Below are positions 1,976-41,298 of a DNA stretch of 41,298 nucleotides, one piece after another. The notes beneath the pieces were generated by a model, which did no database searches, was not told where the DNA came from, and saw only the letters and a list, made by a program, of their open reading frames with translations. How positions within the stretch are numbered: position 1 is the stretch's first letter; the number at the start of each line of letters is the position of its first letter. The translations under genes were made by a program, and so were the position numbers. The stretch is from positions 47,332,716 to 47,374,013 of the forward strand of contig NC_057719.1 of NCBI RefSeq assembly GCF_004010195.1. The letters run 5' to 3'. Source of the stretch: Chiloscyllium plagiosum (Eukaryota).

Positions 1976-4900
1976 GTAAGTGTCGCAGATAAGGTGCCCC
2001 GCAAATAAAAATGTTGCCGGATCTGGAGTCTTGATAACGATGAAGACGTTCACTTTATTCCCCAAAACAGGTTTGTTTGGGATATTCCTGTAATAATCCG
2101 GAATTCGGAGGAGACCGAGTCCGGGACCAGGGTGCAGAGAAAACGTATGGTGCAGGTGAAAAACCCGTTCGCGTTGGAAGTTTTGAACCCCGGTGCTGCA
2201 TCAGTTATCGGTAATTACTTTGTTATTTTAAATGGTTCCTCTGTGTGTAACTGCAAGAAACATGGTTCAGAGGGTTCAAATATTGGCCCTTAACTAACCA
2301 GAGCCACTGTTAATACCCACTTTGAGTGATTGTGAGTGAGCAGCGGATGATACTCAGGCATGCACTTCTCATTCTTAAAGCTGTTTAAAAAAAGAAACAT
2401 CCCATCTACTATGTCAGGTCTGATGAAGAGTCATCTAAACTCGAAACGTTAGCTTGCTGTCTCTCCACGGATGCTGTTATTTCCAGCATTTTTTTTTGTT
2501 TTCATCTCATCTATTGTGTCCAACTGTTAATCTCTGTTATTGGAACGCCTACCAATGAATCTACTTTTTACATGTTGTTTCCCAACTCTGTTTCTGCCAG
2601 AAAGTAGTTTACGGCAGTTTGGATTTCGTTCGAAAATAGTAATTTGGTCAGCTAAAGTCTTAAGATCTCTCTCTCCATCTGACCTCCCCGCTCCTCCCCC
2701 ATCACTGTTATTGTTTACCTTCAGACTAGTCCAGAACTATTTAGGGCAATGTGCAGTTGACAGGTTTGCAACAGCATGTTGATATCATGACACCCTGATT
2801 TCAAACTTAGTGTGGGTGAAGTTTTTGGAATGTTTTATTGGTTCATAAAATATTCAGTAGTTTGTAGTGAAGAGGTATGGCATGAGTTCTGATTTTCAGA
2901 GAATATGGGCCTCAATTAGCAGAAATGCTCATTTGGTAGTCTCCCAATAGTCATAGAATAAGTTAAGTCCTGAGTGGTTTAAAGTCTGAGGTAGAAGGCT
3001 GCGGAAGGGGAGCTTAAGGAACCCATAATAATAAATAAATGATGTTATGTTAGCTGTTTGTTTAAAAGTCTCAGCTGCAGCTTGCCCATTGAACAAGGAA
3101 ACTCGAAATGGAAGCAGGGTGACTTCACAGGTTTGAGTAACTGGAAGATAATTGTTGGGAGTAAAAAGTTTTAACCTTTGTTTATGATATTTATTAATAA
3201 ATTTGAAATGTTTGTATAGTGTAAACAGGGTTCTTGTGTAATAAACTTTGTTAAAAATGTGTTGCTGGAAAAGCGCAGCAGGTTAGGCAGCATCCAAGGA
3301 GCAGGAGAATCGGCGTTTCGGGCATGAGCCCTTCCTCAGGCTCATGCCCGAAACGTCGATTCTCCTGCTCCTTGCATGCTGCCTGACCTGCTGCGCTTTT
3401 CCAGCAACACATTTTCAGCTCTGATCTCCAGCATCTGCAGTCCTCACTTTCTCCTAATAAACTTTGTTCTTTTGTTAAAAGTACATTGGCAGCATCTTGT
3501 GAGTATGTTCAATGGCTGACTGTTAAGAGCAACAAATTGTAACAGTAGAACTAAAGTAAAAGTAAAAACTAAAATAAAAACCAGGTTTCACTCTGGAATC
3601 TGACTTGTCTAGAATTACTATTGCCTTGGATCATGACACATTTTGGTAGTTTGTAACAAATATTCAGTAGCGTAGCATGATAATTGTAATACAAGAGAAA
3701 ATAATTGACTTTGAACCTGTTGTTTCTGAAAATCTCCACTGGAATTATCTTCGCCTCATATCTGGGTATGTTGTGAACTAACAATCACATTATCATTGAA
3801 TACAGTTGTTAGGAGTTGTTATGCAGTCACCAAGTTTTTTTTTGACAGGTTTATTTTGGTGGAAGTTTATTAGTGTGTGCTGCTTTTTTAAGAACCTTCA
3901 TTCAAATGATTGACTTAAAACTTGTCATCGCTGGTTAATAAATTATTTCAAAGGTGAACTAGATGGACCTTGATCGAGCAGTTTGCCTCAATTCCTGCAC
4001 TCGTATTTAAAGTAATTCCTGTGTGTGTCTTAATCATGAGAGATATCTGAATCTATTGGTCCTGTATTTCATGGGTAAAAATTGTTTGGGCATTTTTCAT
4101 TCCTACTCTACCATTCAATCATTGACTACTGATAAACCAATACGTCAAATCCCAACCATAACTGGGCTACAATGACCTCTTGTGTTTGTTCTATTTGATT
4201 TATATTTCTCCTTTCTACCTCCTTTTTCTGTTTTTGCCAATGTGTCTTTCAACCTGCTGTCTTTCTTGCATACTCTTTATTTCTGTTATGTCTAATTTGT
4301 CTCCAAATCACCATTTTTGTTCGATATTTTACTTTCTGCATTCATTTTTCATTGGTCAAGGAGATCAACTGTTTGACACAATATGATACAATGTAGCACA
4401 GGAACAGGTGCTTCGGCCCACCAAGCCTGAACCAATTCTAATCCTTATTTAGACCCACTACTTATTGCCCATGTGCAGTTTCTACCCCTCCACACACCTC
4501 TTGTTCATGTGCCTTTCAAGATAGGTCTTAAAACATTGCTGATGTGCCTGCTATCACCACCTCCGCTGGCAGTGTGTTACAGGCATCCACCACTATCTGT
4601 GTGAAAATCTTTCCACACTTCTCCCTTAAATTTTCCCCCTCTCACCTTGAGCCTGTATCTTCTTGAAGTTTACCTTTCCACCCTGGGAAAAATAAACCTC
4701 TGAATATCCATCCTACCTATGCATCTCATTTTGTAGACTTCTATCAGGTTGTCTCCTCAGCCTTCATTTTCCAATGAAAACAATCCGAGTTAATCCAACC
4801 TCTCCTCGTGACTAGAACCCTTTAGACTAGGCAACATCCTAGTAAACCTCATCTGCACACTCTGCAAAGCATCCATGTCCTTCTATTAGTGTGGTGACCA

Positions 4901-7900
4901 GAACTGCACATAATATTCTAAATGTTGCCTATCTAAAGTTTTGTACAGCTGTAACATAACTTGCTAACTTTTACATTCAGTTCCCCGCCAAATGATGGCC
5001 AGCATGCTGTATGCCTTCTTGACCACCTTAGTCACTTGTGTTCGCACCTTTTGGGGATCTGTGGACCTGTATGCCCAGATCCCTCTATATGTCGAAATGT
5101 TCATGCATTCTCAGATATACCATTCATATTGCTGTACCGTTAATGCTTCAGTGATCTAGCAATTTTCAGTGTAAATTTAAACCAATTTCTACAGAGGTGT
5201 AGCAAAACTAGTTAACATGGTTCACCACGAAATATGACATTATAGCAATTTCTTACTGTAGGATAAATTTTAGGCATGACCTTACACAGTCCTCAAATTG
5301 TAGTGCAACTGCAATAAAATTTAACTAATTTGAGGCTCCCTACTCAGCATGATTTTTGTTATCAAGTCATCACTTGAAAGTCGATTTTGGGCTTGTAAAC
5401 GTGAATTAGGTTCATTGTCCTTTTAAGTATGAAAATGGTTGTCTGTTGAATCTCAGTGCTCAGCAGTTCTCTATAATGATGGCCAATGCATAAACATTTT
5501 GTCCTTGCCTCCTTTGGCATCTAAGGGTTCATGTACTATTTGGACAACACAATTTTTTTCAGCCTTTGATACGTCTAATATACCTTATTTAGTGATACAT
5601 CAGATAATATCAATTTAATATTTAACTTACTTTGCTTTTATTTTTACCTTTGTATATTTTCACTTTCTAACTTCTCTCATTTCTTTGTGATATTGGAAGA
5701 GTTTTTCTGGAGCATGTGTAATGTTCTTAGCTTCCTTAATCTGAAGTCTTTGCTGCTTTCATAACACTTCTCACCAACTTTCGTAAATTCATGTATACTT
5801 TTCAAATTGCTCCTACCTTACTAGATTTCGAATTATTTTCTTTATATTTCACGCTTTTAATCGACATTTTCATTCAGTTTGAAGAATCTATATGTTGAAC
5901 TTATTTATTTTTATTGTACACTTATTGTATTCATGGATGAGACCTTCAGAGAGTACCCTCCTCATTCATTTTGATTTCTCTGCAGCCTTTGACTAGGTTG
6001 ATCACAACATACTGCTCAATCAGATCTTCTCTGTTGTTAGAGATTGGAAATGTCTTTGTGTAATTCTATTGTCACTAATCCAATCATAGTCAGAAAGATG
6101 CCTGCAATGTCCCTTTGCATTGTTGCGTTGGATCACAAAGTGGCCGAGTAGAGGCTGATCGCTGAGTTTGGTAGCCATGGGGATGGCCTTAACCAGGACC
6201 TTGGGTCCATGTCACACTACAGGTGACCCCATTGCACTCTGCGCTCTCGTTCTCACACACACACGCACATAACTTCTCTCATACTCAAGCTTTCTCTCAT
6301 ACGCTCACACGTACTCACCCACACAAGAAACTCTCACGGACTTATACCCTTTTACACTCAGACGCATACACGTACACACTCTCACAGGCACTCATTTTCC
6401 CCCCCCTCCCATCACAAGTTTGTGAGGTGAATTTGTACTTGCAGAATTACATTTTATTTTGCTCAAAAACTGCATGAATCCATGTAAGATTCTGTAGATC
6501 CGTTTTTTAGATTAGAATCAGTCTGAACATTGGGACACAGACAGCCTTATACCTTCAATACATTATCTGGGCTGACATGGCACCAATTGTTAAAGTTCAC
6601 TTGAGAATGTAACTTTAAAAAAAGTTCTGGGATTTACATATGAAAGAAATGACACCAACATGGTCATTCCAAAAGATAAAAGACTTGAAAAACATCTGGA
6701 CTGTTTGTTAATATAATTTCAGTTACATCACACTGTAAACTTTTGCTGTAAATTCTGTGTCTTACGATCTTATACTCAACAACCACCTGATGAAGGAGCA
6801 GCACTCCGAAAGCCAGTGCTTCCAAATAAACCTGTTGGACTATAACCTGGCATTGTGTGAATTTTTAACTTTGTACACCTCAGTCCAATACTGGCACCTC
6901 CAAATCTTTCTGGTCCTGCACTGTTGCCTTTAGAGCCCTCCAAAAATCTATCCTTGGGAGTTTCCTATTACTCATGCATGTTGTCACTCTACAGCAATGT
7001 CTCATGACAAGGTGTCACATTCTACACAGAGTCATAGAGATGTACAGCACGGAACAGACCCTTCGACCAGATATCCCAACTTAATCTAGTCCCACATGCC
7101 AGCACCTGGCCCATATCCATCCAAGTACTTCCTATTCATATACCAATCCAGATGCCTTTTAAATGTTGCAATTGTACTAGCCTCCACCACTTTCTCTGGC
7201 AGCTCATTCCATACATGTACCACCCGCTGTGTGACAAAGTTGCCCCTTAGGTCTCTTTTATATCTTCCCCTCACCGTAAAACTATGTCCTCTAGTTTTTT
7301 CCCCACCCCATCAATGCCCGTCATGATTTTATAAACCTCCAGAAGGTGCCCCCTCAGCCTCTGACGCTCCAGGGAAAACAGACCTAGCCTATTCAAACTC
7401 TCCCTATAGCTCAATTCTCTAACCCTGATAACATCCTTGTAAATGTTTTCTGAACCCTTTTCAAGTTTCACAACGTCCTTCCAATAGGAAGGCGATCAGA
7501 ATTGCACACAGTATTCCAAAAGTGACCTAGCCAATGTCCTGTACAGCCGCAGCATGACCTCCCAACTCCTGTACTCGATACTCTGACCAATAAAGGAAAG
7601 CATACCAAATGCCGTCTTCACTATCCTATCTATCTGCAACTCCACTCACAAGGAGCTATGAATTTGCACTGCAAGGTCTCTTTGTTCAGCAACACTCCCT
7701 AGAACATTACCATTAAGCGTAAAAGTCCTGCTAAGATTTGCTTTCCCAAAATGCAGCATCTCTCATTTATCCAAATACATGTACATCCTGTCCCTCAGGA
7801 TTCCCTCCAACAACATGCCCACCACCGACGTCAGGCTCACTGGTCTATAGTTCCCTTGCTTGTACTTACCACCTTTCTTAAACAGTGGCATCACATTAGC

Positions 7901-10900
7901 CAACTTCCAGTCTTCCGACACCTCACCTGTGACTATAGATAGAGTCATAGAGATGTACAGCATGGAAACAGACCCTTCGGTCCAACCTGTCCATGCCGAC
8001 CAGATATCCCAACCCAATCTAGTCCCACCTGCCAGCACCCGGTCCATATCCCTCCAAATCCTTCCTATTCATATACCCATCCAAATGTCTCTTAATGTTG
8101 CAATTTGTGGTGAAACGGTTAAAAATTATGTCCCAATACATGTGTGAATCTAACCGGAATGGAGGTGTTGCTTAGTCCCGTGTGAATCTTATTACACACC
8201 TCCCCGTGTGAATCTTCTTATCTGTATGTAACCAGAATGGAATGTGTTTTTTAGCCTTGCTCTGCTGTTCACATGAATGTTTATATCTGGAAAAGAGTAT
8301 ATCAGCTGGAAAAGTCTCCAGTTCGGAGAGTCTGCTCCGGGGTTACGTTTAACCGCCGAGCGTGGGTTGTTGGCAACCGCTCTACGAGAACTGACGGCTC
8401 CCAGTTCCGGGAACATGTAGAGTGAGTATAAGCCAGACCCGTTCTGGCGACGCTGCGGGGAATAAAATGCCCATATTCTAGCAGACTCGCCTCTTGGTCA
8501 TTTGTTCTGTGTCAGACTACTCTCCTACGAACCTGACCTTGAGAATTTTTAAAAACATTTGGCGTAGTCGAGCAGGATCAATCGCAATTGAGGAGAGATT
8601 TTGATACAGAACAATGTTTTGGAAAAAGACTAAGAAACCAGAAGAACAAACTGTGGAGGTCCCGACCGTCCCGGGATGGCATGGATGTGGGCATGTACGT
8701 GGCAGTTTGTTTGAGAAAGGATCCCAGTCCTGCCGAAGAACCCCTTGCCTGGGGTACAGCGGAGGATGTGGGCATGTCCAAAAAACTGAAGCGGAGTTAA
8801 CAGAATTGAATGGGATTGAACTGAACTGAACTGAGTGGAACTGAAGTGAATCAAATTGAACGGAACAAAATGGAACTGAGCTAAATTGAATTGAAATGGA
8901 CGGAACTGAATTGAACACAATTGAATTGAACTGAACAGACCTGAACTGAGCTGAATTGAACTACACTGAATTGACTGAACTGAAATTAACTGAAACGAAT
9001 TGCATAATGTAACACATGTATTGGGCCAAGCAGTGGAATGTGGTGAAACAGTTAAAAATTATGTCCCAATACATGTGTGAATCATAATGTAACACATGTA
9101 TTGGGCCAAGCAGTGGAATGTGGTGAAACAGTTAAAAATTATGTCCCAATACATGTGTGAATCATAATGTAACACATGTATTGGGCCAAGCAGTGGAATG
9201 TGGTGAAACAGTTAAAAATTATGTCCCAATACATGTGTGAATCATAATGTAACACATGTATTGGGCCAAGCAGTGGAATGTGGTGAAACAGTTAAAAATT
9301 ATGTCCCAATACATGTGTGAATCATAATGTAACACATGTATTGGGCCAAGCAGTGGAATGTGGTGAAACAGTTAAAAATTATGTCCCAATACATGTGTGA
9401 ATCATAATGTAACACATGTATTGGGCCAAGCAGTGGAATGTGGTGAAACGGTTAAAAATTATGTCCCAATACATGTGTGAATCATAATGTAACACATGTA
9501 TTGGGCCAAGCAGTGGAATGTGGTGAAACGGTTAAAAATTATGTCCCAATACATGTGTGAATCATAATGTAACACATGTATTGGGCCAAGCAGTGGAATG
9601 TGGTGAAAGGGTTAAAATTATGTCCCAATACATGTGTGAATCTAACCGGAATGGAGGTGTTGCTAAGTCCCGTGTGAATCTTATTACACACCTCCCCGTG
9701 TGAATCTTCTTATCTGTATGTAACCAGAATGGAATGTGTTTTTTAGCCTTGCTCTGCTGTTCACATGAATGTTTATATCTGGAAAAGAATAAAAAGCTGG
9801 AAAAGTCTCCAGTTCGGTGAGTCTGCCCCGGGGTTACGTTTAACCGCCGAGCGTGGGTTGTTGGCAACCGCTCTACGAGAACTGACGGCTCCCAGTTCCG
9901 GTAACATGTAGAGTGAGTATAAGCCAGACCCGTTGTAAGTATGAGACCAGGTTGTGGCGACGCTGCGGGGAATAAAATACCCATATTCTAGCAGACTCGC
10001 CTCTTGGTCATTTGTTCTGTGTCAGACTACTCTCCTACGAACCTGACCTTGAGAATTTTCTAAAACATTTGGCGCTGCGAGCAGGGTCAATCGCAATTGA
10101 GGAGAGATTTTGATACAGAACAATGTTTTGGAAAAAGACTAAGAAACCAGAAGAACAAACTGTGGAGGTCCCGACCGTCCCGGGATGGCATGGATGTGGG
10201 CATGTACGTGGCAGTTTGTTTGAGAAATGGTGGGGGGCGACCGGAGGAACCCCAGGGTCGCTGCTGTCCACCCTTGAGAGGATCCCAGTCCTGCCGAAGA
10301 ACCCCTTGCCTGGGGTACAGCGGAGGATGTGGGCATGTCCAAAAAGCTGAAGCGGAGTTAACAGAATTGAATGGGATTGAACTGAACTGAACTGAGTGGA
10401 ACTGAAGTGAATCAAATTGAACGGAACAAAATGGAACTGAGCTAAATTGAATTGAAATGGACGGAACTGAATTGAACACAATTGAATTGAACTGAACAGA
10501 CCTGAACTGAGCTGAATTGAACTACACTGAATTGACTGAACTGAAATTAACTGAAACGAATTGAACTGAATCAAGCATAATGTAACACATGTATTGGGCC
10601 AAGCAGTGGAATGTGGTGAAACGGTTAAAAATTATGTCCCAATACATGTGTGAATCATAATGTAACACATGTATTGGGCCAAGCAGTGGAATGTGGTGAA
10701 ACGGTTAAAAATTATGTCCCAATACATGTGTGAATCATAATGTAACACATGTATTGGGCCAAGCAGTGGAATGTGGTGAAACGGTTAAAAATTATGTCCC
10801 AATACATGTGTGAATCATAATGTAACACATGTATTGGGCCAAGCAGTGGAATGTGGTGAAACGGTTAAAAATTATGTCCCAATACATGTGTGAATCTAAC

Positions 10901-13900
10901 CGGAATGGAGGTGTTGCTTAGTCCCGTGTGAATCTTATTACACACCTCCCCGTGTGAATCTTCTAATCTGTATGTAACCAGAATGGAATGTGTTTTTTAG
11001 CCTTGCTCTGCTGTTATTATCTGTATGTAACCAGAATGCTTTTTCTTAACCAAACCCTCAATTCCTTTAGTCATCCAGCATTCCCTATAGTTATCAGCCT
11101 TCCCTTTCACCCTGACAGGAATATACTTTCTCTGGACTTTTGTTATCTCATTTCTGAAGGCTTCCCATTTTCCAGCCATCCCTTTACCTGCGAACATCTG
11201 CCTCCAATCAACTTGATCCAAATATCTCAGCAAGCAGCCCAGCCATCACTTCTCGCGCTTCCCACAGAGTTCTAGGGTACACCTGATCAGGTCCTGGGGA
11301 TTTATCCACCTTTTCCCATTTCAAGACATCCAGCTCTTCCTCCTCTGTAATGTGGCCATTTTACAAGATATCACCATGTATTTCCCCGCATTCTATATAT
11401 TCCATGTCCTTCTCCACAGTAAACACGGATGCAAAATACTCGTTTAGTATCTTCCCCCATCTCCTGCGGCTCCACACAAAGGCCGCCTTGCTGATCTTTG
11501 AGGGGCCCTATTCTCTCCCTAGTTACCCTTTTGTTCTTAAATTATTTGTGAAAACCCTTTGGATTCTCCTTAACCCTATTTGTCAAAGCCATCTCATGTC
11601 CTATTTTTGCCCTCCTGATTTCCCTCTTAAGTATGCTCCTACTGCCTTTATACTCTTCTAAGGATTCACTCGATCTATCCTGTCTATACATGACATATGC
11701 TTCCTCCTTTTTCTTAACCAAACCCTCAATTCCTTTAGTCATCCAGCATTCCCCATATCTACCAGCCTTTCCTTTCACCCTGACAGGAATATACTTTCTC
11801 TGGGTTCTCGTTATCTCATTTCTGAAGGCTTCCCATTTTCCAGCCGTCCCTTTACCTGCAAACTTGTGTCCCCAATCAGGTGTTGAAAGTTATTGCTTAA
11901 TACCATCAAAGTTGGCCTTTCTCAAATTTAGAACTTCAACTTTTAGATCTGGTCTATCCTTTTCCATCACTATTTTAAAACGAATAGAATTACGGTCGCT
12001 GGCCCCAAAGTGCTCCCCCACTGACACCTCAGTCACCTGTCCTGCCTTATTTCCCAAGAGTAGGTCAAGTTTTGCACCTTCTCTAGTAGATACATCCACA
12101 TACTGAATCAGAAAATTTTCTTGTACAAATTCCTCTCCATCTAAACCCTTAACACTATGGCAGTCCCAGTCGGTGTTTGGAAAGTTAAAATCCCTTACCA
12201 TAACTACCCTATTATTCTTACATTAGCTGAGATCTTCGGACAAGTTTGTTTCTCAATTTCCCTCTGACTATTAGGGGATCTATAATACAATCCCAATAAG
12301 GTGATCATCCCTTTCTTATTTCTCAGTTCCACCTAAATAACTTGCCTGGATTTATTTCCGGGAATATCCTTCCTCAGTATAGCTGTAATGCTGTCCCTTA
12401 TAAAAAATGCCACTCCCCCTCCTCTCTTGCCTCCCTTTCTATCCTTCCTATAGCATTTGTATCCTGGAACATTAAGCTGCCAGTCCTGTCCATCCCTGAG
12501 CCATGTTTCTGTAATTAGTATAATTACTGTGGTATCCCCAATCCCATGTTCCTACCCATGCCCCGAGTTCATCTGCCTTCCCTGTTAGACCTCTTGCATT
12601 GAAATAAATGCAGTTAATTTATCAATCCTACCTTGTTCCCTGCTTTGTCCCTGCCTGCCCTGATTGTTTGACTCACTTCTGTTCGCAATTGTACCAGTCT
12701 CAGATTGATCTCTTTCCTCACTAGCTTGTTGGGTCCCACCTTACTAGTTTAAATCCTCCTGAGCAGCTCTAGCAAAGTTCCCTGCCAGCATATTAGTCCC
12801 CTTCCAATTTAGGTGCAATCCGTCCTTCTTGTACAGGTCACTTCTACCCCAAAAGAGATTCCAATGATCCAAAAACGTAAATCCTTCTCCCATACACCAG
12901 CTCCTCAGCCATGCATTCATTTGCCCTCTTCCTGCCCTCACTAGCTCATAGCACTGGGAATAATCCTGATATTACTACCCTTGAGGACCTCCTTTTTAAA
13001 TTCCTGCCCAACTCTGTGTAGTCTCCCTTCAAAATCAATCTTTTCCCTTCCTATGTCATTGGTTCCAATGTGTACAATGACCTCTTGCTGGTCCCTCTCC
13101 CCCTTGAGAACATTCTGCACCCTCCCTGAGACATCCTTGATCCTGGCACCAGGGAAGCAACACACCATTCTGCTTTACCATTGCTGGCCACCAAAACGTC
13201 TATCTGTGCCCTGACTAGAGAATCCCCTAACACAATCGATTTCTTGGAACTCAATGTACCCCTTGTTGCATTAGAGCCAGTCTCAATACTAGAAACTTGG
13301 CTGTTCATGCTACGTTCCCCTGCGAATCCGCCCCCCCCCCCCCCCCGACATTTTCCAAAACGGCGTACTTTGAAATGGGGATAGCCACAGAAGACCCTGC
13401 ATGAACTACCTACCTCTCTTACCTTTCCTGGAGTTTAACCCATTTTGTGACCGAATCTGCGACTTTTCCCCCTTCCTATAATGGCCATCCATCACATCCC
13501 CTTGCTCTTGTAAATTCCTCATTGCCTGTAACTGTCTCTCCAACTATCCATTCGATCTGATAGGATTCGCAACCAACGGCATTTATTGCAGATGTAATCC
13601 TCAGTAACCCATAAACTCTCCCTAAACTCCCACATCTGACAAGAAGAGCATATCACTCTACTAAGGGCCGTTTTTGCTTCTTTCAATCTACAGACCCAGA
13701 AAATAGCATTATCTTATTCCTCGACAAAACACTGCTCCAGGTTAAATTAATACTTATGGCTTATATTCTAAGTTTAATCAAGAGACGTATCTCAATAAAA
13801 CATATAATCAAGAAAGAACCCACTCTACTCACTACTGCAGACTGACTGTAAGGCCACTTATAATATTCACTTATCTGTTTCTGTGCTGTGACCTGTCCCA

Positions 13901-16900
13901 AACAGGTTCCTCCAAGATTAGTTGTGAATTTCACTGTGTGGTGATGATTTCCAACTCTAGTCACCATCACTGCTGTCAATCTTTCTGCTCCCACTGCTGT
14001 CAGGCTGCTATTCTGACACAATCCCGGATGAACTTTTCTGTTGGTAAATGTTAGGCAGACCAAAGGAGCTGTCTTCAGTTCCAACCATTACTAAAGTTAT
14101 TGCCTGGAGAATAAGATCTTAAGCAGAAGAGGAGAACATCAAACAAGTTCCTTCGAAGTAAACTTTTAGCTTTAAAACCGAGGTACGTAAATTTGTATCC
14201 TGTTCAAAACCAAAGCAGATGACTTATGGATGGAATTTAATTCCAAAATTAAGCTCGTCAGTGGGCTATCTTTTCTCTTTTTATTTTGACTTTAATGTCC
14301 TCTGACCAACTCTGCTTGCAGTGAAATGAGTCTGGAAAGTTTTCAAAATATCTACTACAATGGAAGCCACACAACAAAACAAAATTGCATTCAGCACTAA
14401 CTGCAACTTTAACTCTGGGAATGGAAACAAATAGATGTGCTGTGTCAGTAATTGAAAACCCTCTTCTACTTCTGGATTAAGTGCATTGTTGGAATCCTAC
14501 ATAAGAAAAATAACCACAAGTCTAACTGTTGACATTGAAATTCTTCCTTACATCTTGGTGAGCATAAAAAACTATGGACGAGTTGGACCATTGACCCTAT
14601 GACTATTTAGGAGAAAGTGAGGACTGCAGATCAGAGCTGAAAATGTGTTGCTGGAAAAGCACAGCAGGTCAGGCAGCATCCAAGGAGCAGGAGAGAGAAA
14701 GTGAGGACTGCAGCTGCTGGAGATCAGAGCTGAAAATGTGTTGCTGGAATATAAAATGCTAGAATATAAATTTTATTAAATATAAAATGTGTTGCTCTCC
14801 TGCTCCTATGACTATTTATTTTATTCTAATCTATCACCAGAATGAAATTGTATCAATTCAGTATCTGTTGTTTTGCTAATTGAACAATTATATTCTTAGT
14901 TTATATGGCTGCACTGGCAAAGAATTATCGAATTTTGTGAGATATATAATTAGATGCATATATTGCACTTTAGTTCTTCTTAGGCAGACCCTTGGGATTA
15001 AGGATGACTTTCTTCCACTTTGGTGTTGTGGATGTGAGGTGACTAAATAGCCCAATACTGGATGTCCACACCCTGCTGCAGATATGACCAGTAGTCTTTA
15101 CTGAAGTGGGCGGGTGGGTGGGATGCTCAGGATTTCATATTCTCCTTCCATTGTTCGTGATTGCCCTCCATCTGGCCTGTTGGAGATGTTTGGCACATTC
15201 ACAGAGACTTCACTTCTATCTAATGCTATTAAGGTTTAAATGTCTATAAGAAATGACTGTGTCAGTTGTGATTTTAATTTAACTGTTCATTATCTTACAT
15301 CAAATTCAATCTCCTCCTTAATATAATGCACAAAATTTTCATTGCATCTTGAACACAACATGTGTAATAAATAGAAATCTAGGCATGTTATTTAAGACTA
15401 TACCATTTCTCCGCAACTGTTGAGAAATGATGAGTTAACAATTCATTCATGACTTAAAAGGCAATGAAAAGGCTTCAATATTTGTGCAAGATTATCTTTA
15501 AAACTTTGATAAGATAGCTATATCTGCTCTTACTGGGTTATAGTTAGCATGGAAATTTGAGAAATGTCTGGTGAGGACCACATTAGGATTATTGATGATA
15601 CCCCATAGATTTAATTGTATGCCAACACTTCTGATTAACATTTGAAAAATGGTTACTAGATTTTATATTGCGATGGATGGCCATCTGGTACAAAGAGAAG
15701 TGTATGTTTTCATGACTCAACACCTTCAAAGAAATTTGAAAGGGTTCAGAAAAGATTTACAAGGATGTTGCCAGGGTTGGAGGATCTGAGCTACAGGAAG
15801 AGGCTGAACAGGCTGGGGCTGTTTTCCCTGGAGCATCGGAGGCGAGGGGTGACCTTATAGAGGTTTACAAAATTATGAGGGGCATGGATAGGATAAATAG
15901 ACAACGTCTTTTCCCTGGGGTTGGGGAGTCCAGAGCTAGAGGGCATAGGTTTAGGGTGAGAGGGGAAAGATATAAAAGAGACCTAAGGCGCAACCATTTC
16001 ACGCAGAGGGTGATACGTGTATGGAATGAGCTACCAGATGGTGTGGTAGAGGCTGGTACAATTGCAACGTTTAAGAGGCATTTGGATGGGTATATGAATA
16101 GGAAGGGTTTGGAGGGATATGGGCTAGGTGCTGGCAGGTGGGACTAGATTGGGTTGGGATATCTGGTCGGCATGGATGGGTTGGACCGAGGGGTCTGTTT
16201 CCATGCTGTACACCTCTATGACTCTAAGAGGAGCCAAAAGCATGAGGGAAGGCTGGAGAAAGTATGTGTTCTGGAGTACAAGCGAGAGATATTGCAGGGT
16301 CAACACTTTACTGAGTTCCAAGCCTTGGTTGTGTTGCTTATGAAGTGTGAGAAAGTAATTGGAACAAATTGCCATTGACTTCTTGTGATTCTTGCCGAAA
16401 AGCTGGCTTGGGAGTTTTATCTCACATCTTCTGTGGAAAAGAGAGAAAACGCTGAAAATGCAGGTTCATCAAAGAGGTTAACATGCAATTAAAAGTTCTT
16501 GTGTGTTTGCTGTCTATTTTCAGAAGGTGTAGATAAATTGCTTGTACATTGCTTATTTGTTATTTGGTCAGATTACTTTTCAATTGTGGAATTTTTGCAT
16601 TTCTAAAAGTAGTACTGTCTTTTCAAAAGTTTGGCAAGGAACATGTTCATTTTATAAAATTATTATTGTGCATTAGATGAGTAAATATGACCATACCAGC
16701 ATTAAATCTCATTTTTACAACTAACCAGGGCATGGCCCTTGTTTGAAACGATACTCTATACTTACAATAAGTCTAACAGTGAAGGGCTAGACTCACAGTT
16801 TAACCAGAATTATACAATTTTTAATCACTTAATTTTTGGAGTTGTATGAATTTTTAAAGAATAATTACTGTAAAAAATCTCTCCCTGTGTTGACTATTTT

Positions 16901-19900
16901 AATATTACTTTGTTGAACTAACCAGCTTTTTATTGCTACCAGTTCTCACTTGCAAAACTTTGCTGTAAATTTATTTAATTTCCAAATCCTACTATTTTCT
17001 TAACCTATGGATGGGTATATGAATAGGAAGGGTTTAGAGGGATATGGGCCAAGTGCTGGCAAATGATACTAGGTTAGGTCAGGATATCTGGTCGGCATGG
17101 ATGGGTTGGACTGAAGGGTCTGTTTCTGTGCTGTAAATCTCTGACTCTAAACAATGTAATTCTTAGACAGTAAATCATTACAACATAAGCACCAATTTAC
17201 ATGGCGCAACATAACTTTAAGACTTCAGAACTTTTGTGATGTCTATCTTTGTTTTGATGTGAGAGGCTTTTCTTGGGTTGGATAAGGAGATAAAAATCTT
17301 CAGTCACAGTCTCTGTGCCCAACACAGTCACAGCCAGTTTCTGGCTTTTTCTTTTAAATTTCCCTTATTCTGTAACATGAATACCTGCCTCACTTCCTTC
17401 AATCTCATTGAGAACTGTCACCACCTCCTTGTTCCTGTTGTATGTAAATCTATTTCTGCTGTATCAAGATATAGTGTTGTATTTTCAACATTGTTTGTTT
17501 TATATGAAAACAAGTTGAGAATGCAGTACCTTGTGGCCAATGTGAGTATATTGACTGACTGCAATGCACAGGAGATAATGGTGTAAGAATATGCTCAAGA
17601 AATATAGGAAGTTATTTTCACCTTGTTTCTCTTTCCATTATCACAATGTTCACTGCGTCTTTTACAAAATCAAATGAGCTTTCTGGACGGTGCTAACTTT
17701 ATAAGTTTTGATGAAGAACATAATTTGTCAGTAACTACATTTCTAATGTACTTCTCAACAAGTTTGTCTGTGCTGAGAATACTTTGGATATAATTTGCTA
17801 CGTCTGAAACCGTTTCTGCATTATCTTTGCAGGTGGAGTAAATCTCAAATCTCATTGCATAGAGAAATGCTTTCTGACAGTCTACTGGGGATGTAATGTT
17901 CATAAACTTCATGAAGGATTACAAAAACATATTTACAGCTTCAGAATCAAGGTGCCACAGAAACTGGAAGAAGCTATAGATAGACAATATCTCTATCAAG
18001 AGACATTTCTGTATCCTTTTTTTAAATTTCTGAACAAATCTGAGTCTTGTATACCTATCAAAGTTGTTAATAATGTTAACTCATTTCAAATGGCATACAA
18101 AAATAGCAATTAACTTGTGAGGCACCTTCAGGGTAGTGAAATGTCACAAGCATCATTTAATCAAGAGTGACACGGAGCCACATTCAGATATTAGTTTCTG
18201 GTTACCTGAAGTTTGATCAAAGAAGTAGGTTTTGAGGAGTGTCCTAAAGAAAGAAGATCGGGTAGAGAAGCAGAGAGGTGTTGGAAGAGCACCCAAACCT
18301 GGAGGTCCAGGCAACAGAGGATACTTTGGGATGTACAGTTGGTCAGAATTATATAAGTGCACATATCGTTGGGAGCTATGGAGCTGACACAGGTCACAGA
18401 TCGGGAGAGAATACAGGAGTTATGAAGTCTTGCTTCAGTTGAAGTTAACTTCGACTTTGCCCGGAGTATTGTGTGTAGTTTCGGTCTCCTTACCGCAGCA
18501 AAAATGTTGCCACAGAGGGAATGCAATAAAGGTTGACCAGACTTTGTCCTGAGATGATGTGGCTGGCCTATGAAGGGGATTGGGTAAATTGGGCCTATGC
18601 TCTCCAGAGTTTTAAAGAATGGGAAATGATCTAATTGAAATCTACGAACTATTTCAAGGAATGGACAGTGCTAATGCAGGCAGGATTATTTCCTGGGAGG
18701 GGAGGAGGAGGAGGAGAAGGAGGAGGAGTTGGTGGACATTTTTATGGGGTATATCATTCAGGACCAAGACAAGGAGAGTGTTCTTTTCGCTCAAAGGGTG
18801 GTAGATCTTTAGGATTCTGTACACCAGGGCTATGGAAGCTCAGTCTTTGAATATTTGTAGAGTACAGGTTGATTTTTTAAAAAATCTTTATCAGTGGCAT
18901 AAAGAGTTAGTGTGGGTATGTGGGCATTGAAGTATTTGATTACATTAAATAGCAGAGCAGGTTTGATAGCCTGAATGGCCTACTCTGTCCCCATATTCCT
19001 GAAATATAAACTATTAAAAACCTAAGTAATTATTAAACTGATCCCCAACTACATCTCCCTGAACTCTGACCAACATCCAAACCCCAGTAATCTCCACCTG
19101 GGGCTCAAATGCTGCAGGATTCAACACTCCCTAACATCTCCTGCCCACCCAATTTTCCCGAAGCACTCCTTCATTGGCACCCTAATCTCACATCTATCTA
19201 ATGCCCTTTCTTGCCCTTTCACAAGAGCTGTCAAAGTTTGTCTGCGAGCTAGACATTTAAATCTCAGAATACAGCACAAACTGTGAGAAAGGGGACGTTG
19301 TTTACTGTTTCCTGACTCCTGTATTTTGCGGGATCTGTCAGACGTAAAATGCAACTCTGCATTTCTGAAGGATCCCTGACTGGAATCTTCTGTTGGAAAT
19401 GCAGTGCTCTTTCTTTAAAAATTTCTTTTAAAAACAAACAGAGTGGCAACCACGCTCAGATTGGAAAATTCATCCTAAACTGTTTTCTTTAAAACAAACC
19501 GGAGATTCAAATAATTGTGAATTTGTCTTGCAACATTACAATTAGAACTGATAATATGTTTCAGAATTAATTTCTTTACCATATTGTACTAGCATTGAGA
19601 AACAGAGTGACAGTGAAAAATTCTCTCAGCTACCTAAATATTTAACAATAAAAGATTTTGGGAGTCTGCCTCGAACACGATATCCACTAGTAGCATTGTT
19701 AACATTAGCAGAAGAGGAAGACTGGGACATTTATGAAATTGTAAGTATATGAATTGATTTTTTAAAAAATAAAAATGGTTACATACCAATTTAAAAATAC
19801 TTTATTTTTGACCGACTGTCTACCTCCTCAGCAGATGGCAACATATTCTGGGCTATTGTAACATTGCATTAGAGGCCTGTGATGCTATATGGAAGCAGTA

Positions 19901-22900
19901 ACTGATCCCAGCCTTGTGTTAACAGACTATTCAACCCACAGTTTGGTGCTGCAGTTTTCAAACCTTCACATTTTTCCCCCCTCCCTCTTTTTTTTTGCTG
20001 TAGTTGATCTAAGGCTGAAAGTCAATTGTGCCCCTCTGCAGCCTTGGAGAGTGAGAGAACATAGAAATATTAAATTGTATTACTTTTAATAGGATGCTTA
20101 GAGTGAAACTTTATAAATGACTACAAATTGCAACTAAGAATCTATTGACCACGATGGCACGGTGGCTCAGTGGTTAGCACTGCTGCCTCACAGCGCCAGG
20201 GACCCGGGTTCAATTTCAGCCACGTGGGTTTCCTCTGGGTGTTCCGGTTTCCTCCCACAGTCCAAAGGTGTGCAGGTCAGGTGAATTTGCAGGTCAGGTG
20301 AATTGGCCATGCTAAATTGCCCATAGTAATAGGTGCATTAGTAGGGGAATGGATCTGGGTGGGTTACTCTTCAGAGGGTCGTTGTGAACTTGTTGGGCCG
20401 AAGGGCCTGTTTCCGCACTGTAGGGAATCTAATCTAATCTAAACTAAATATTTCAGGCTGTATTGTGCAATTACTCAGAAACTTCAGCTTGATACAATTG
20501 GTTAAGTAAATCATCCGTCAAACTACCTTTTAGAAATTCAAGCTGTTTAAATGTTTTTGTTGCTGTGTTTACATTTTAATCAGAAAATTTCACAATATAC
20601 ATGGCTTCTGTATCTTCAGGTTTCTATGGTTACAGTAATTCATGTTCCAGATGAGAAATACAGACTCACCTGCCGAATCTTGTACCAGTATCTGTTGACT
20701 GCACAAGGTCACATATATGACCTTAAGGTAGGTCTACCAGTTGTCGTGATTATAGGAGAATGGAATCAACTATGTATTCTAATATTTCTCCTAAGGTTTA
20801 TTACAGAGAGCCTTTGAGAGTAAAATGCCACTATATTATGGTTTACATGCATAAAGATTATAGCTAAGATTTTCAGCTTGTTTTCTCTACTGTTTCCTGA
20901 GAGAGATTGTTATTAAGCTGTTTGATTATGGAGAGAGCAAGGAGCATTATTGCTGATTGCTAAGCATAAATAATAAAAGCGTAGGTGAGTTTAGAAACTG
21001 GCAAAAGTAACAATTAAAACTATGCAGTTCCTTATTAATATCATGGTTAATATTGCTGCACATCAATTGGGAGACTGGCATTTAGTTCCCTAATGGGGAG
21101 AAGGTATTGACTTAAAGATTTTGACTGCTGTAGCTCAGTACAAAACCATCTGAGAGAGAAGGTTGCAGGTTTAAGTCCTCTCCAAGGAGTTCTTTATGCC
21201 TACCTTTTTATTTTAATTATAAATCCTCATGGTGCAGTATTAGTTTTTGAAAATAAGAAGCAGAAATTTCAGCTCAGTGAGGTTTTAAAGAAAAAAAATA
21301 CAGCATGTTCATTATTGGATAGGCGAGAGTTTTTTTCCCTTCTCTAATTGTCCTTGTGAAAGTGGTAGTGAGCCGTGACCATGAACAATTACAGTCCGTG
21401 TAATTTAGGTACGCCCAGAATGTTGTTCAGAAGGGAATTTCAGAATTTTGAACAAGCAGTAGTGAGGGAACAGCCATATGTCGTGAAGCTGTATAGCTTG
21501 ACAGTTGATGGTGTTCCCATGTGTCCCTTGTCCTTCTAGGTGGTAGAAATTGCAGGTTTGAAAGGTTCTGTCGAGGGAGTGAATGTTTAGATTGTGGATG
21601 GGATACTAGTAAAATGGGCTGTTTTTGTATTAATGGAGATACAGTCATCCATGAAAATGGATGATATTCTGTCACATTCCTGATTTGTGTACTGTAGATG
21701 ATGGGCAGGCTTTTGAGAATCAGGAGATGAGTTTGTTGCCTCAACTCCCAGATTCTGCCTCCTCCTCAGCTACAGTACTTATAAAGTTGGTCCAGTTTAG
21801 TGTCTGGTCAATAGTAATCCCCAGGTTGTTGATAGTGGTGAATTCAATAATAATAATTCTATAAAATATTAAGGAGAGGTGGTCAAATTCTCCTGTTCAA
21901 GATAGTCATTGCCTAGCACTTGTGTGATTCAGTTGTTGCTTCCCAGTTACCAGTTCAAGCCTGAGTGTCCAAGTCTTATTGCACATGGACATGGACTGTT
22001 TCAGTATTTGAAGAGTTGCAAATCTCACTTAACACTGTAGATTCATGAGTGAACATTCCCACTTATGAAGGGAAGATCATTGAAGGTAGTACCTTCAGCA
22101 GCTTCATCAATGATCTTCCCTTCATAAGTGGGAATGTTCACCCATGAATCCACAGTGTTAAGTGAGATTTGCACCTCCTCAAATACTGAAACAGTCCATG
22201 TCCATGTGCAATAAGACTTGGACACTCAGGCTTTAATTGGTAACTGGGAAGCAACAACTGAATCACACAAGTGCTAGGCAATGTCTAGAACAGTGTCAGG
22301 GAGAACTCCCCCTGCTGCAATATCCTTGGACTGAGATTATGATCTCCAACTACTACAACCATTTTGCTTTGGGTTAGGTTTAATGCACAAGATAGTAGGA
22401 AATAGGAGTAAAAATAGGTTATCTTGCCTGTTGAGCCTACTCTGTGATTCAATAATTTCATGGCTGATTTGATTATGGCCTTAATTCCATTTCCTTGCCT
22501 GTTCCTGTAACCCTGGATTCCCTTGTTAATCAAAAATCCATGTATCTTACCCTTGAGTATATTCAAACATCCAACCTCCACTGCTATCTATAAAAGACAA
22601 CTTCTGTCGTCAAGCAGTAGTACATAGATGATGTTTGAGTGTGCAGAGACCAAGCACTGTTAACATGTTCACCAAGGTGTTTGAGAGAATAGGCCTCAGA
22701 CTGGACATCCGGAAAACTAAGGTTCTGTACCAGTCCACTGCTGTCGTACAACACTGCACCCACTGGCAGAATAGTGTATCAATGTGAGAGTTTGCTCCCT
22801 GGCCAGTATTCCCAGTATTGAGATACTGGTTATGCATACCCAGCTGTGACAAGTAGGCCACATTGTCCAGTTGCTCAACAGACAATTTGGGGCGGCACAG

Positions 22901-35278: not shown

Positions 35279-35408
35279 TAGGCAAAAGTGAGGACTACAG
35301 ATGCTGGAGATCAGAGTTGAGAGTGTGGTGCTGGAAAAGCACAGCAGGTTAGGCAGCATCAGAGTAGCAGGAAAATTGACATTTTGGGCAAAAGCTCTTC
35401 ATCAGGAA
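35279..35408 (-). mobile_element. Penelope-derived short element with decayed hammerhead
   Basis: Minus strand CTGATGA-A-GAGC-tttt-GCCC-AAAA-TG-TC. 14-bp TSD TCAATAAAAYCTGC (35265-35278 / 35409-35422). Confidence 0.7.
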
Positions 35409-35800
35409 TCAATAAAATCTGCCTCCAGCACACTCAGGCAGTGCCTTCCAATTCTAACCATTCCAAAAATGAAAATATTTTTCTTCATGTCTCCAATGCT
35501 TTTGCCAATTGTACCATCCTGTTCCCATTGATGGAAGGATCAAGAATATTTTTCCCACCTACTCTCTTCAGACCCTTCATGATTTTATATACTTCCACTG
35601 AAATTCCCCACAAGCTTCTCCGAGAGAGGGTCCCAATCCCATGAGTCTATCTATAAAATGAAGTTCCTCATCCCTGGAACCATTCTCATTAATCTTTTCA
35701 ACACTCTGTTTAGTTTTTTCACAGGTGTAGTACCCAAAATTGGATGCAGTACTCTTATTGAGGCCAAACTAGTATTCCATACAAATTTAACATAACCTCT

Positions 35801-38679: not shown

Positions 38680-38890
38680 CGAAGCTGAAAATGTGTTGCT
38701 GGAAAAGCGCAGCAGGTCAGGCAGCATCCAAGGAGCAGGAGAATCGACGTTTCGGGCATGAGCCCTTCCTGAAGAAGGGCTCATGTCCAAAACGTCGATT
38801 CTCCTGCTCCTTGGATGCTGCCTGACCTGCGCTTTTCCAGCAACACATTTTCAGCTCTGATCTCCAGCATCTGCAGTCCTCACTTTCTCC
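38680..38890. mobile_element. Palindromic Penelope-derived short element
   Basis: Inverted arms 38683-38768 / 38774-38856. TSD TCTGATACCAGAAA (38666-38679 / 38891-38904). Confidence 0.8.
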
Positions 38891-41117
38891 TCTGATACCA
38901 GAAAAGCAATATACTATCCTGGAGTCATTTGCTGAAAACTCATGGCAGCGAGGCTGATCTGGACATTTTCTTTTCCTTTTGTTTCTGTTTCTTTTTAAAT
39001 TTCCGCTCTTGTTTTTAATTCTAACTATTGTACTCTAAGATGGTGCTGTACTCCTGTACCCAGGTACATGTGACGATAAAATTAATCAATCAAACATGTT
39101 TAAATTGAGCACGTTGCCGAAATAAGAGGCATACTGCCTCATTTATAATATTAGTATTGTTGACCCACTTTTGTTAAAACCAGGTAACGGATTTTTAACA
39201 TTTTCACATCCCCAAACTGAAAGTTTTCAGGAGTTAAAACTCCTCCAGTATTTATTGAGAGTCTGGAGTGCTGTAAATCTTTTGAAGTAGGCCCTGTGCC
39301 CAGAAAATAAATATGATGCTGTACAGTATGTATATAAGCTTTTTAAAATGAATTTATATATTGTGAACCATGGTAATGATAATGTGAATTATTACCATTT
39401 TTTAGCCAATGATGATGGCTGAGAATGTGGGTTCTTTGAACTTGTAATATAGGTCAATGTTCTAATAGAATAATAAACATATGGTGCATGTCTCGTTTAT
39501 GTTAAGCTATGAATTACTTGTACAATGCTGAAAATATAACATCAGGTTTTCCAGGTAGTCTCATGGAAATAAAAGTGAACACTAAGTTTGCTTTTTCCTT
39601 TGACTTCCAAACTACTCGAATATCTCCTTTCCTAAAATACACATCTTCATTAATCACTTTCAAATTTTGGCTCTTTTAATGTTTAGCAGTGATTCAGTAC
39701 TGTTTTAACATAATGATTCTTGAGGGTGTCAACATTCAAAACTAAAAAGTGTAATTTTATTTGATTGTTTACAATAGGGCAAGTATACAGAGGTCATTTT
39801 GCCTTACGTTTCCATGAAATGTCGAGGTTTTGTTATGTAAATGCTTTTTTTTTAAAAATACAATTCCAACTATTGTGTTGCTTTTTAAGTAGGAGCCTTG
39901 AATGAAAACAGATCAAAAGTTATTAACCATCCAAACTACTCAATGCAATCAATTAACAGCTGTAGTTCTACACGTGTTACAGGGTTTTCTTTTCAGTCTA
40001 TTTAGGAACAGTCGATTATCTGGTCATTACAGAACAATTGCTGAATATTCCACAAAATGTCAAAATAAATAAGATTGCTATTTCACGCTAAATAGACATA
40101 ATTATGACATTCGTTATTTGAAGAAGCAAAAACAAATGGAGAATGTTATAATTAATTAATCTAGTAAGCAACACATGTGAATGTTAATTTTTTAAAAGAA
40201 AATCCCATTTAAATCTATCAGAGATTTCTAGTTCTGCTTATTTCCAGCACAAAGATATACTGGATTTTTATGAAGTTTATGCTCAGCATTATGAAAAGGA
40301 TAGTCTGGCTTTAATCAAGTCTCATGTGTTTAGAAATCTATGTTGCCCATCAAGTAACTTTTATACAGGGGACTTGTCATGCTACCTTAAAGAAATTGAA
40401 ATCTACCTTTTATGTGCAGAGTACAGAGTCTGGAGGAGGAGCCTTTTCCAGCAGTGTGACTGCTTGTGTGTAAAATATAAATCACTTTTTGTACTGATGG
40501 GCTGCAAATACGAGTGGGGATAGCTTAGTCCTCTGTCAATCTGAGCATAGGTATTTGTCTGTAGCTACTGCTCTTCTTAACAATTAGTTTGAAGGATCTA
40601 TATTGATACCTGTTTTGGAGATAAAGGGAATTGGGGCATAAAGACTCATTCAGCATATATGCCAAATTGGAAGTTATGCCAGCGTTGGTATGGCATGTCA
40701 ATTTCGGGCTAACATGCCTGAAGCACCTCAGAAGTACTGTTTTTTATAATAGCCCTTTTCATATTGGCAAGCTGAGGCCTTAATTTCCATGCCTATATGG
40801 CACCTTTTCCCTTTTAAATTGGCAAAAGAAGCTCTGCTACAGGTTTCAACAACAAGAGACCGAATAGTTGGCAGCTTGGTCCAACAAAATCCCCAGCCTT
40901 TCCAAAATAAGGGCAGGTCCTAAAATTCATATGAAGCGGCTGAAGTTGAATCATGGTCCATTTCCCAAACGCTATCTCACAATTTTCAGAGATGAATCTC
41001 GTTGTGAAAAGACAACTGTCCCCTATATGTCAGTAGCATAAAACGAGTATTTGTAATCTTTAAGGTTGACAAAGCAATGAGCACATGATGTTTTCATAAG
41101 ACTAGTAATCTAGACAT

Positions 41118-41298
41118 GAGCTGAAAATGTGTTGCTGGAAAAGCGCAGCAGGTCAGGCAGCATCCAAGGAGCAGGAGAATCGACGTTTCGGGCATGAGCC
41201 CTTCTTCGGGAATGAGGAAAGTGTGTCCAGCAGGCTAAGATAAAAGGTAGGGAGGAGGGACTTGGGGGAGGGGTGTTGGAAATGTGATAGGTGGAAGG
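41118..41298 (-). mobile_element. Penelope-like element terminus (runs off the window)
   Basis: Same family as 3253 and 38680. Minus strand ATTC-CCGAAGA-A-GGGC-tcat-GCCC-GAAA-CG-TC-GATTC at 41177-41213. Confidence 0.7.

Follow-up and report, generated by a model that had tools for sequence, protein, structure and literature searches.

Tandem 80-bp units carrying a putative PPT hairpin in a non-coding LTR element within CGRRF1 of Chiloscyllium plagiosum

Within the CGRRF1 gene of the carpet shark Chiloscyllium plagiosum, the junction between the internal region and the LTR of a retroelement is repeated in tandem, which raises the question of how this junction came to be multiplied, and whether the two stretches that hold the copies are one array or two. 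The locus was studied in a window of 41,298 nucleotides (NCBI RefSeq assembly GCF_004010195.1, contig NC_057719.1, positions 47,332,716 to 47,374,013 of the forward strand), and all positions given here are those of the window. A previous sequence-only reading had described the array and an inverted repeat in each unit, and had suggested that slippage or template switching driven by the hairpin multiplies priming and integrase-end signals, or that a minisatellite is being born from a retroelement cis-signal.

The host gene was identified by tblastn, using the closest Chiloscyllium plagiosum protein as query, which gave six plus-strand exon matches to CGRRF1, four at 98-100% identity followed by two at 83-91%. 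The placement of the element inside CGRRF1 was confirmed, as one exon match ends at 2212 before it and the next starts at 17832 beyond it, which puts it in intron 2 (2213..17831, plus strand, 15.6 kb, the ends being approximate because they derive from tblastn), in the same orientation as the gene. No further copies of the element were found within the window. To the intron the element adds, in gene orientation, three AATAAA motifs (8461, 9788 and 9971) and four donor-like motifs (8422, 9817, 9913 and 9935), and premature polyadenylation is a possible consequence of such motifs. Immediately to the right of the element lies LINE-like DNA on the minus strand (11039-12222) with a weak endonuclease Pfam match and a 172-bp direct repeat (11039-11210 and 11707-11878). 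A short repeat also occurs in the window at 3254-3455, 38683-38891, 14607-14749, 41118-41232 and 35279-35430, two of these copies being near-perfect palindromes of ~160-175 bp, and a separate 386-bp palindrome with arms of 93% identity is located at 21903-22287.

All parts of the element lie on the plus strand, in the order LTR1, PBS1, internal region 1, array, LTR2, PBS2, internal region 2, array and a truncated LTR3. The LTRs start with TG, end with CA and contain TATAA and AATAAA motifs, and a 2-nt spacer is found on every inner side. LTR1 (8106..8557, 452 bp, type alpha) carries TATAA at LTR position 322 and AATAAA at 356, has no extra units at its start, and is preceded by unrelated DNA, so that the 5' LTR at 8106 defines where an LTR begins. 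LTR2 (9599..10067, 469 bp, type beta) differs from LTR1 by 12 substitutions in 450 sites plus indels, one of them of 19 bp, whereas LTR3 (10852..11038) shows 1 substitution in 164 bp against LTR1. LTR3 holds the start of a 53-bp U3 duplication (joint from 9761 to 9710) and is cut within that duplication, against the LINE-like DNA. No target-site duplication was readable, the 3' end of the element being deleted and the flanks not matching.

Behind the spacer of LTR1, PBS1 (8560..8578) is the complement of the tRNA-Ser 3' end, interrupted by one inserted nucleotide. PBS2 (10070..10087) is tRNA-Ser-like with a different sequence, presumably that of another tRNA-Ser isoacceptor. Both PBS forms are present in other runs, and as the PBS is recopied from the primer, the two forms hint at the use of two tRNA-Ser isoacceptors. 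PBS1 matches the tRNA-Ser template oligo of PMC3299991 with one extra base. Internal region 1 (8558..9038) lacks a 52-bp and a 12-bp segment that are carried by internal region 2 (10068..10611). The 3' edge of the missing 12 bp (10564-10575) is also the 5' edge of the repeat unit (9002/9003), which places two breakpoints at one position. The 3' half of each internal region is filled, up to shortly before the PPT hairpin, by a degenerate TGAAC pentamer microsatellite of ~200 bp (8799-9002 and 10360-10570).

None of the seven stop-to-stop frames of at least 100 aa in the element, those of internal region 1 included, matched a Pfam family, and over 12 frames of the window the only matches were to the last CGRRF1 exon and the weak LINE endonuclease. 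The element is a non-autonomous, non-coding LTR element, for which a superfamily assignment would have to come from a coding partner; the 5' end of the LTR fits the CsRN1 motif given in PMC3601003 (5' motif TGTGGYG) and the 3' end does not. ARAGORN found no tRNA genes. Ten Rfam matches on 7500-12000 all belonged to one miRNA family and were rejected, as they scored 21.4 bits against a cut-off of 98.

The array was found as it had been described, with 8 + 4 units of 80 bp starting at 9003, 9083 and so on to 9563, and at 10576 to 10816, and with each unit made of the 36 bp at the internal 3' end and the first 44 bp of the LTR. The units are arranged head-to-tail with a period of 80 bp and 99-100% matches, which fits the minisatellite unit range of 10-100 bp. 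The left part (9003..9641) comprises seven alpha-type units and an eighth of 79 bp, the LTR part of which coincides with the beginning of LTR2, and the right part (10576..10895) comprises four identical alpha-type units, the last of which continues into LTR3. Every unit retains the PPT, the AA/TG attachment site and both arms of the inverted repeat; the idea of a minisatellite arising from a retroelement cis-signal is supported, the unit being the whole PPT hairpin module. The ordered variants were also recovered at LTR positions 11-12, as five CA, two CG and one GG followed by four CG. Stepwise growth had been read from this order, but the lone 'AAAGGG' unit is no growth step, being the start of LTR2, which is of the other family type.

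The inverted repeat is perfect over 14 bp, with arms at unit positions 10-23 and 63-76, and the reported loops of 39 nt within a unit (38 nt in unit 8) and of 13 nt in the alternative between units were both confirmed. At the LTR2 junction the hairpin occupies 9572..9637, with arm 1 at 9572-9585, the putative PPT and AA at 9586-9598, the LTR start at 9599 and arm 2 at 9624-9637. Dinucleotide shuffling of one unit gave no 14-bp inverted repeat in 5000 trials, the longest being 12 bp; in the shuffled 1013-nt monomer one occurred anywhere in 1 of 60 and, separately, 6 of 3000 shuffles, and within a 100-nt span in 2 of 3000. The perfect inverted repeat is beyond chance.

A structure of this kind has been described at the PPT before. 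Bousios et al. 2010 (PMC2829016) report a PPT/3' LTR inverted repeat in all Sireviruses but three and in almost half of classic Ty1/copia elements, in which the left arm borders the PPT, the right arm begins a mean of 28 or 18 nt inside the LTR, and the LTR part of the loop is variable and frequently deleted; the role proposed is exposure of the PPT to RNase H. A comparable inverted repeat in HIV is noted by Benachenhou et al. (PMC3601003), who urge a systematic search. In the shark element 13 nt, 9 of them purines, separate arm 1 from the LTR TG, the PPT being assigned to them purely from its position, and LTR position 27, preceded by 26 nt of LTR, is the first base of arm 2. As in the Sirevirus and Copia inverted repeats, the left arm stands at the PPT border and the loop consists of the PPT, the attachment site and a variable LTR start. 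The differences lie in the arms, which are 14 bp and perfect compared with published means of 28 and 19 bp at ~89%, in the vertebrate host, and in the repetition of the whole module, the extra PPTs of Sireviruses being without inverted repeat and attachment site in the account of PMC2829016. Extra PPTs are also found in PMC4728375 and PMC3605345.

The family itself was followed in public runs; of the 24 listed, 20 contain a portion of the element, and these carry three organism codes and a mouse-metagenome label. Contigs of four of these 24 runs were compared over 9556-10350 (6267, 727, 51 and 2 contigs); the two contigs of run X18 both lie within U3 only. No arm variant was listed in the four runs, which is not in itself proof of identity, and no compensatory change was seen, while the loop was variable in the length of its A-run, at 9613, at 9620 and by a 7-bp gap. 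In X16 a contig whose internal region differs retains the 80 nt with one other letter and a 7-bp gap. By analogy with the plant elements, the inverted repeat is most likely a replication signal of the LTR family, with a putative role at the PPT, that predates the array; it belongs to a known kind of PPT signal and is no product of the array. Longer or different internal regions exist, possibly closer to the autonomous partner: in X5 and X16 some contigs diverge from the internal region at 10338, two X16 contigs join at 9563, and in X16 the other sequence amounts to at least 230 letters.

Folding was predicted for the unit alone and in its array. Stem energies of the RNA were -18.0 to -22.5 kcal/mol for the 39-nt loop and -20.7 kcal/mol for the 13-nt loop, and in a slice without the upstream unit (9563-9800) the predicted stem probability was ~1.0 for both RNA and DNA. 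Within the array, the predicted probability of the terminal PPT stem was 0.47 (array 2) and 0.19 (array 1) for RNA, and 0.23 and 0.22, respectively, for DNA. As the two stems are nearly equal in energy, arms of different units pair with one another at the expense of the terminal stem, so that in these predictions amplification tends to scramble rather than reinforce the PPT structure. The proposal that the array multiplies priming and integrase-end signals was not borne out, folding predicting a weaker terminal PPT hairpin. A 5' LTR starting with repeat units, which the sequence-only reading had proposed to look for, was likewise not seen, LTR1 being the sole 5' LTR at hand, an observation which does not discriminate because the 3'-most PPT is expected to win, as discussed in PMC2829016.

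A second duplication of the PPT and LTR start was found elsewhere in the family. X1 has four variants, at a depth of 175-316, of a joint that leads from 9603/9605 back to 9586 across 7-9 intervening letters, and X16, from another organism, has a matching loose end at 9586. The duplicated segment of 27 bp consists of the PPT and 14 LTR bases, belongs to a sub-family whose loop is 7 bp shorter and begins exactly at the first loop base. The sequences point to at least two independent duplications of the PPT and attachment site. Among the joints listed for the four runs the 80-bp junction did not appear; as the compared stretch starts 7 nt before it, and contigs overrunning the ends (21, 4, 3 and 0) could hide it, this is evidence neither way. 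Two contigs ending exactly at 9642 were considered as a branch at the unit junction and rejected, a 7-bp gap ~30 nt upstream explaining the end. Duplications of 114 bp (9819-9932, depth 12,472 and 13,385) and of 53 bp (9710-9761, depth 728 and 1,397) within the LTR are far deeper in the contigs than the PPT duplication, contig depth not being usable as copy number since the ratio of pre-LTR to internal depth varies between runs, and deletions occur at several places. The junction is therefore not the sole unstable spot, and the family may simply be duplication-prone. A metagenome scan with a 19-nt LTR pattern gave two loci, rejected as chance 20-nt matches in AT-rich DNA without further similarity among the rows listed, and a scan of viral contigs gave no matches to the family.

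The reading to which we give slightly better than an even chance is that the module was duplicated by a hairpin-aided slip, grew to 11 units, was split by recombination with a second family member and later lost its end by deletion, the array itself being neutral. The 14-bp stem would close around the PPT and LTR start, probably presenting the PPT to RNase H if plant Copia elements are a guide; in one copy it may have looped out during DNA synthesis, either in reverse transcription or in the chromosome, the strand re-pairing one module back to give the 80-bp duplication. The unit extends beyond the stem by 9 nt on the arm 1 side and by 4 nt on the arm 2 side, which fits the hairpin-driven slippage that had been proposed, but there is no short direct repeat at the junction, where 1 nt is shared, and the first slip would have had to proceed without classical microhomology. 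As looping-out of the stem joins both unit ends, a hairpin-aided slip is the likeliest start. Stepwise growth to 11 units would then have followed in the chromosome, one point variant spreading to five neighbours. Retroviral reverse transcriptase switches template at hairpins, and a 110-bp direct repeat is deleted in 41% of single retroviral cycles (PMC3187697); with repeats lost so often, 11 units are unlikely to survive reverse transcription intact, and together with the variant shared by five adjacent units this makes chromosomal growth the more likely. Decidedly unlikely, in our judgement, is an incidental hairpin, with the unit left by an internal deletion in an older LTR-internal-LTR tandem (from LTR position 44 to 36 nt before the next LTR) or by an ordinary slip, followed by unequal exchange. 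Formally the deletion route yields the identical sequence, a deletion is the proposed origin of maize CRM1TR/CRM4TR, where direct repeats are likewise missing from the junctions (PMC3648361), and elsewhere than at the hairpin the family shows duplications of 114 and 53 bp and several deletions; on the other hand, both unit ends lie within 10 nt of the stem base and 9586, where the 27-bp duplication begins, is the first base of the loop. That the array is instead a sub-family trait, spread by transcription and reverse transcription, with units that are complete priming and integrase-end modules and with both halves having inherited arrays, is a possibility of some weight but an improbable one. 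It would account for the completeness of every unit (PPT, AA/TG site and arms, unlike the extra Sirevirus PPTs), and it agrees with the 27-bp duplication in four X1 variants and as a loose end in X16, and with the family-level duplication by which LTR3 and LTR1 differ. It is opposed by the alpha type of all array units bar one around a beta middle LTR, by the bare start of LTR1, by the frequent deletion of such repeats by reverse transcriptase (PMC3187697) and by the predicted drop of the terminal RNA stem from ~1.0 to 0.47 (array 2) or 0.19 (array 1). An assembly artefact is scarcely credible even though no read-level support for the 80-bp junction came from the four runs, as the novel junction occurs 10 times, with ordered variants and in two distinct upstream contexts, although unit numbers may still be off. 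Mis-assembly, moreover, tends to collapse tandem arrays.

Whether the 8 and 4 units are two arrays was judged from diagnostic sites. The alpha type, defined by a run of five A and a C at position 11, is shared by 11 of the 12 LTR starts in the array, LTR1 and LTR3, five alpha-type units bearing one further change in the typing of positions 11-12 and the A-run, and only the LTR2 start differs. The PBS1 form, the 52-bp gap, the LTR1-type U3 states (9789-9794) and the form without the 19-bp segment were found in many X1 contigs and also in X5 and/or X16, and because the differences between the halves recur in many contigs of other runs, the halves represent two family types, not a local duplication. 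In X16 the LTR1-type U3 states dominate with 793 of 793 depth, as do the PBS1-type insertion with 968 of 968 and the 52-bp gap at a depth of 1693; this joint dominance, in unphased data, pairs internal region 1 with the alpha LTR. The claim that both elements carry the array stands as to the 8 and 4 copies, but not as two independent arrays; the sites suggest that the arrays are not independent and probably descend from one. An alpha element with a single array of 11 units (5 + 6) would have been split 7 + 4 by a beta monomer at 9599-10611, the entering member being LTR2 with internal region 2 (1013 bp), for example as a one-LTR circle or cDNA. From the flanking diagnostic sites, the crossover would be confined to unit positions 1-46 (arm 1, PPT and first 10 LTR bases), giving an LTR-internal-LTR-internal-LTR tandem whose 3' end was lost through a later deletion; the array itself would most likely be a by-product without function. 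A one-LTR circle entering by plain homologous recombination fits the split equally well. Ectopic LTR-LTR recombination of two integrated copies and a heterodimer formed in reverse transcription both fit worse, as either would give LTR2 an array-like start, whereas LTR2 is beta from position 11 next to an alpha left array. Against the split-array reading itself stand the missing target-site duplication, which leaves nothing for dating, and the 53-bp U3 duplication, a family variant in X1 and X5 that is present in LTR3 and absent from LTR1, so that this is perhaps not one integration and a third member may be involved. In fission yeast, Tf1/Tf2 tandems around one LTR arise from cDNA insertion at existing copies, single-stranded PBS and PPT ends guiding integrase-independent insertion (PMC11042837). 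The shark locus is similar in that two related, distinct members lie around a single LTR and the crossover window contains the PPT; it differs in that Tf1 tandems form mostly via PBS/LTR homology upstream of the existing copy, while the shark route is drawn from one locus. We regard as unlikely, if worth stating, the wider proposal that this family repeatedly multiplies its plus-strand priming module (80 bp and 27 bp independently), and that such arrays would serve as landing pads for PPT-directed, integrase-independent cDNA entry, building vertebrate germ-line tandems as Tf1 does in yeast.

Regulatory motifs had also been noted in the array. Inside the element lie 15 of the 17 window occurrences of TGGAATGT, 14 of 21 of CACATG and 13 of 28 of CATGTG. 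We take TGGAATGT to be a TEAD-like motif, and CACATG and CATGTG to be E-box motifs. The clustering is real as counted, but it follows from the repetition of one motif-bearing unit, and the insertion is young and truncated; it is very improbable, despite their clustering, that these motifs make the array an enhancer of CGRRF1 or account for its retention.

Among known elements, TRIMs have terminal repeats of 100-250 bp and a length below 1000 bp (PMC6934838). The shark element shares with them a PBS complementary to tRNA directly after the 5' repeat and the lack of coding capacity, but with LTRs of 452-469 bp and an element length of ~1.4 kb it is too large. Its non-coding nature, its PBS and PPT and the arrangement of x LTRs with x-1 internal regions resemble the tandems of Cassandra (PMC7215508) and biv-TRIM (PMC6934838), in which, as described there, the entire element and not an 80-bp junction is repeated. 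Tandem repeats derived from LTRs are known from maize (CRM1TR/CRM4TR, PMC3648361), and from the mouse MaLR-derived minisatellite Ms6-hm and the soybean Gmr9/Ogre minisatellites (PMC6947457); these are likewise arrays of a retroelement segment with local homogenisation of variants, and the CRM repeats also span the LTR-internal junction. No array whose unit is a complete PPT hairpin with attachment site was found in the part of the literature covered. The parts (PPT hairpin, LTR tandems and LTR-derived minisatellites) are known, and the combination is unusual.

The array is probably a neutral single-locus event, in which case it is a tidy curiosity, and there is a modest chance that the locus records a more interesting replication or insertion route. 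Should a relative really have entered the array by a PPT-directed route, the split array would provide a natural example, in a vertebrate, of tandems formed without integrase. The locus shows, as a clean snapshot, how a minisatellite starts out from a structured replication signal, and a second duplication has arisen independently at this hairpin in the family. The PPT-enclosing hairpin of plant Copia elements and HIV is extended to a young, high-copy LTR family of a cartilaginous fish, in which thousands of family contigs make conservation of the hairpin testable.
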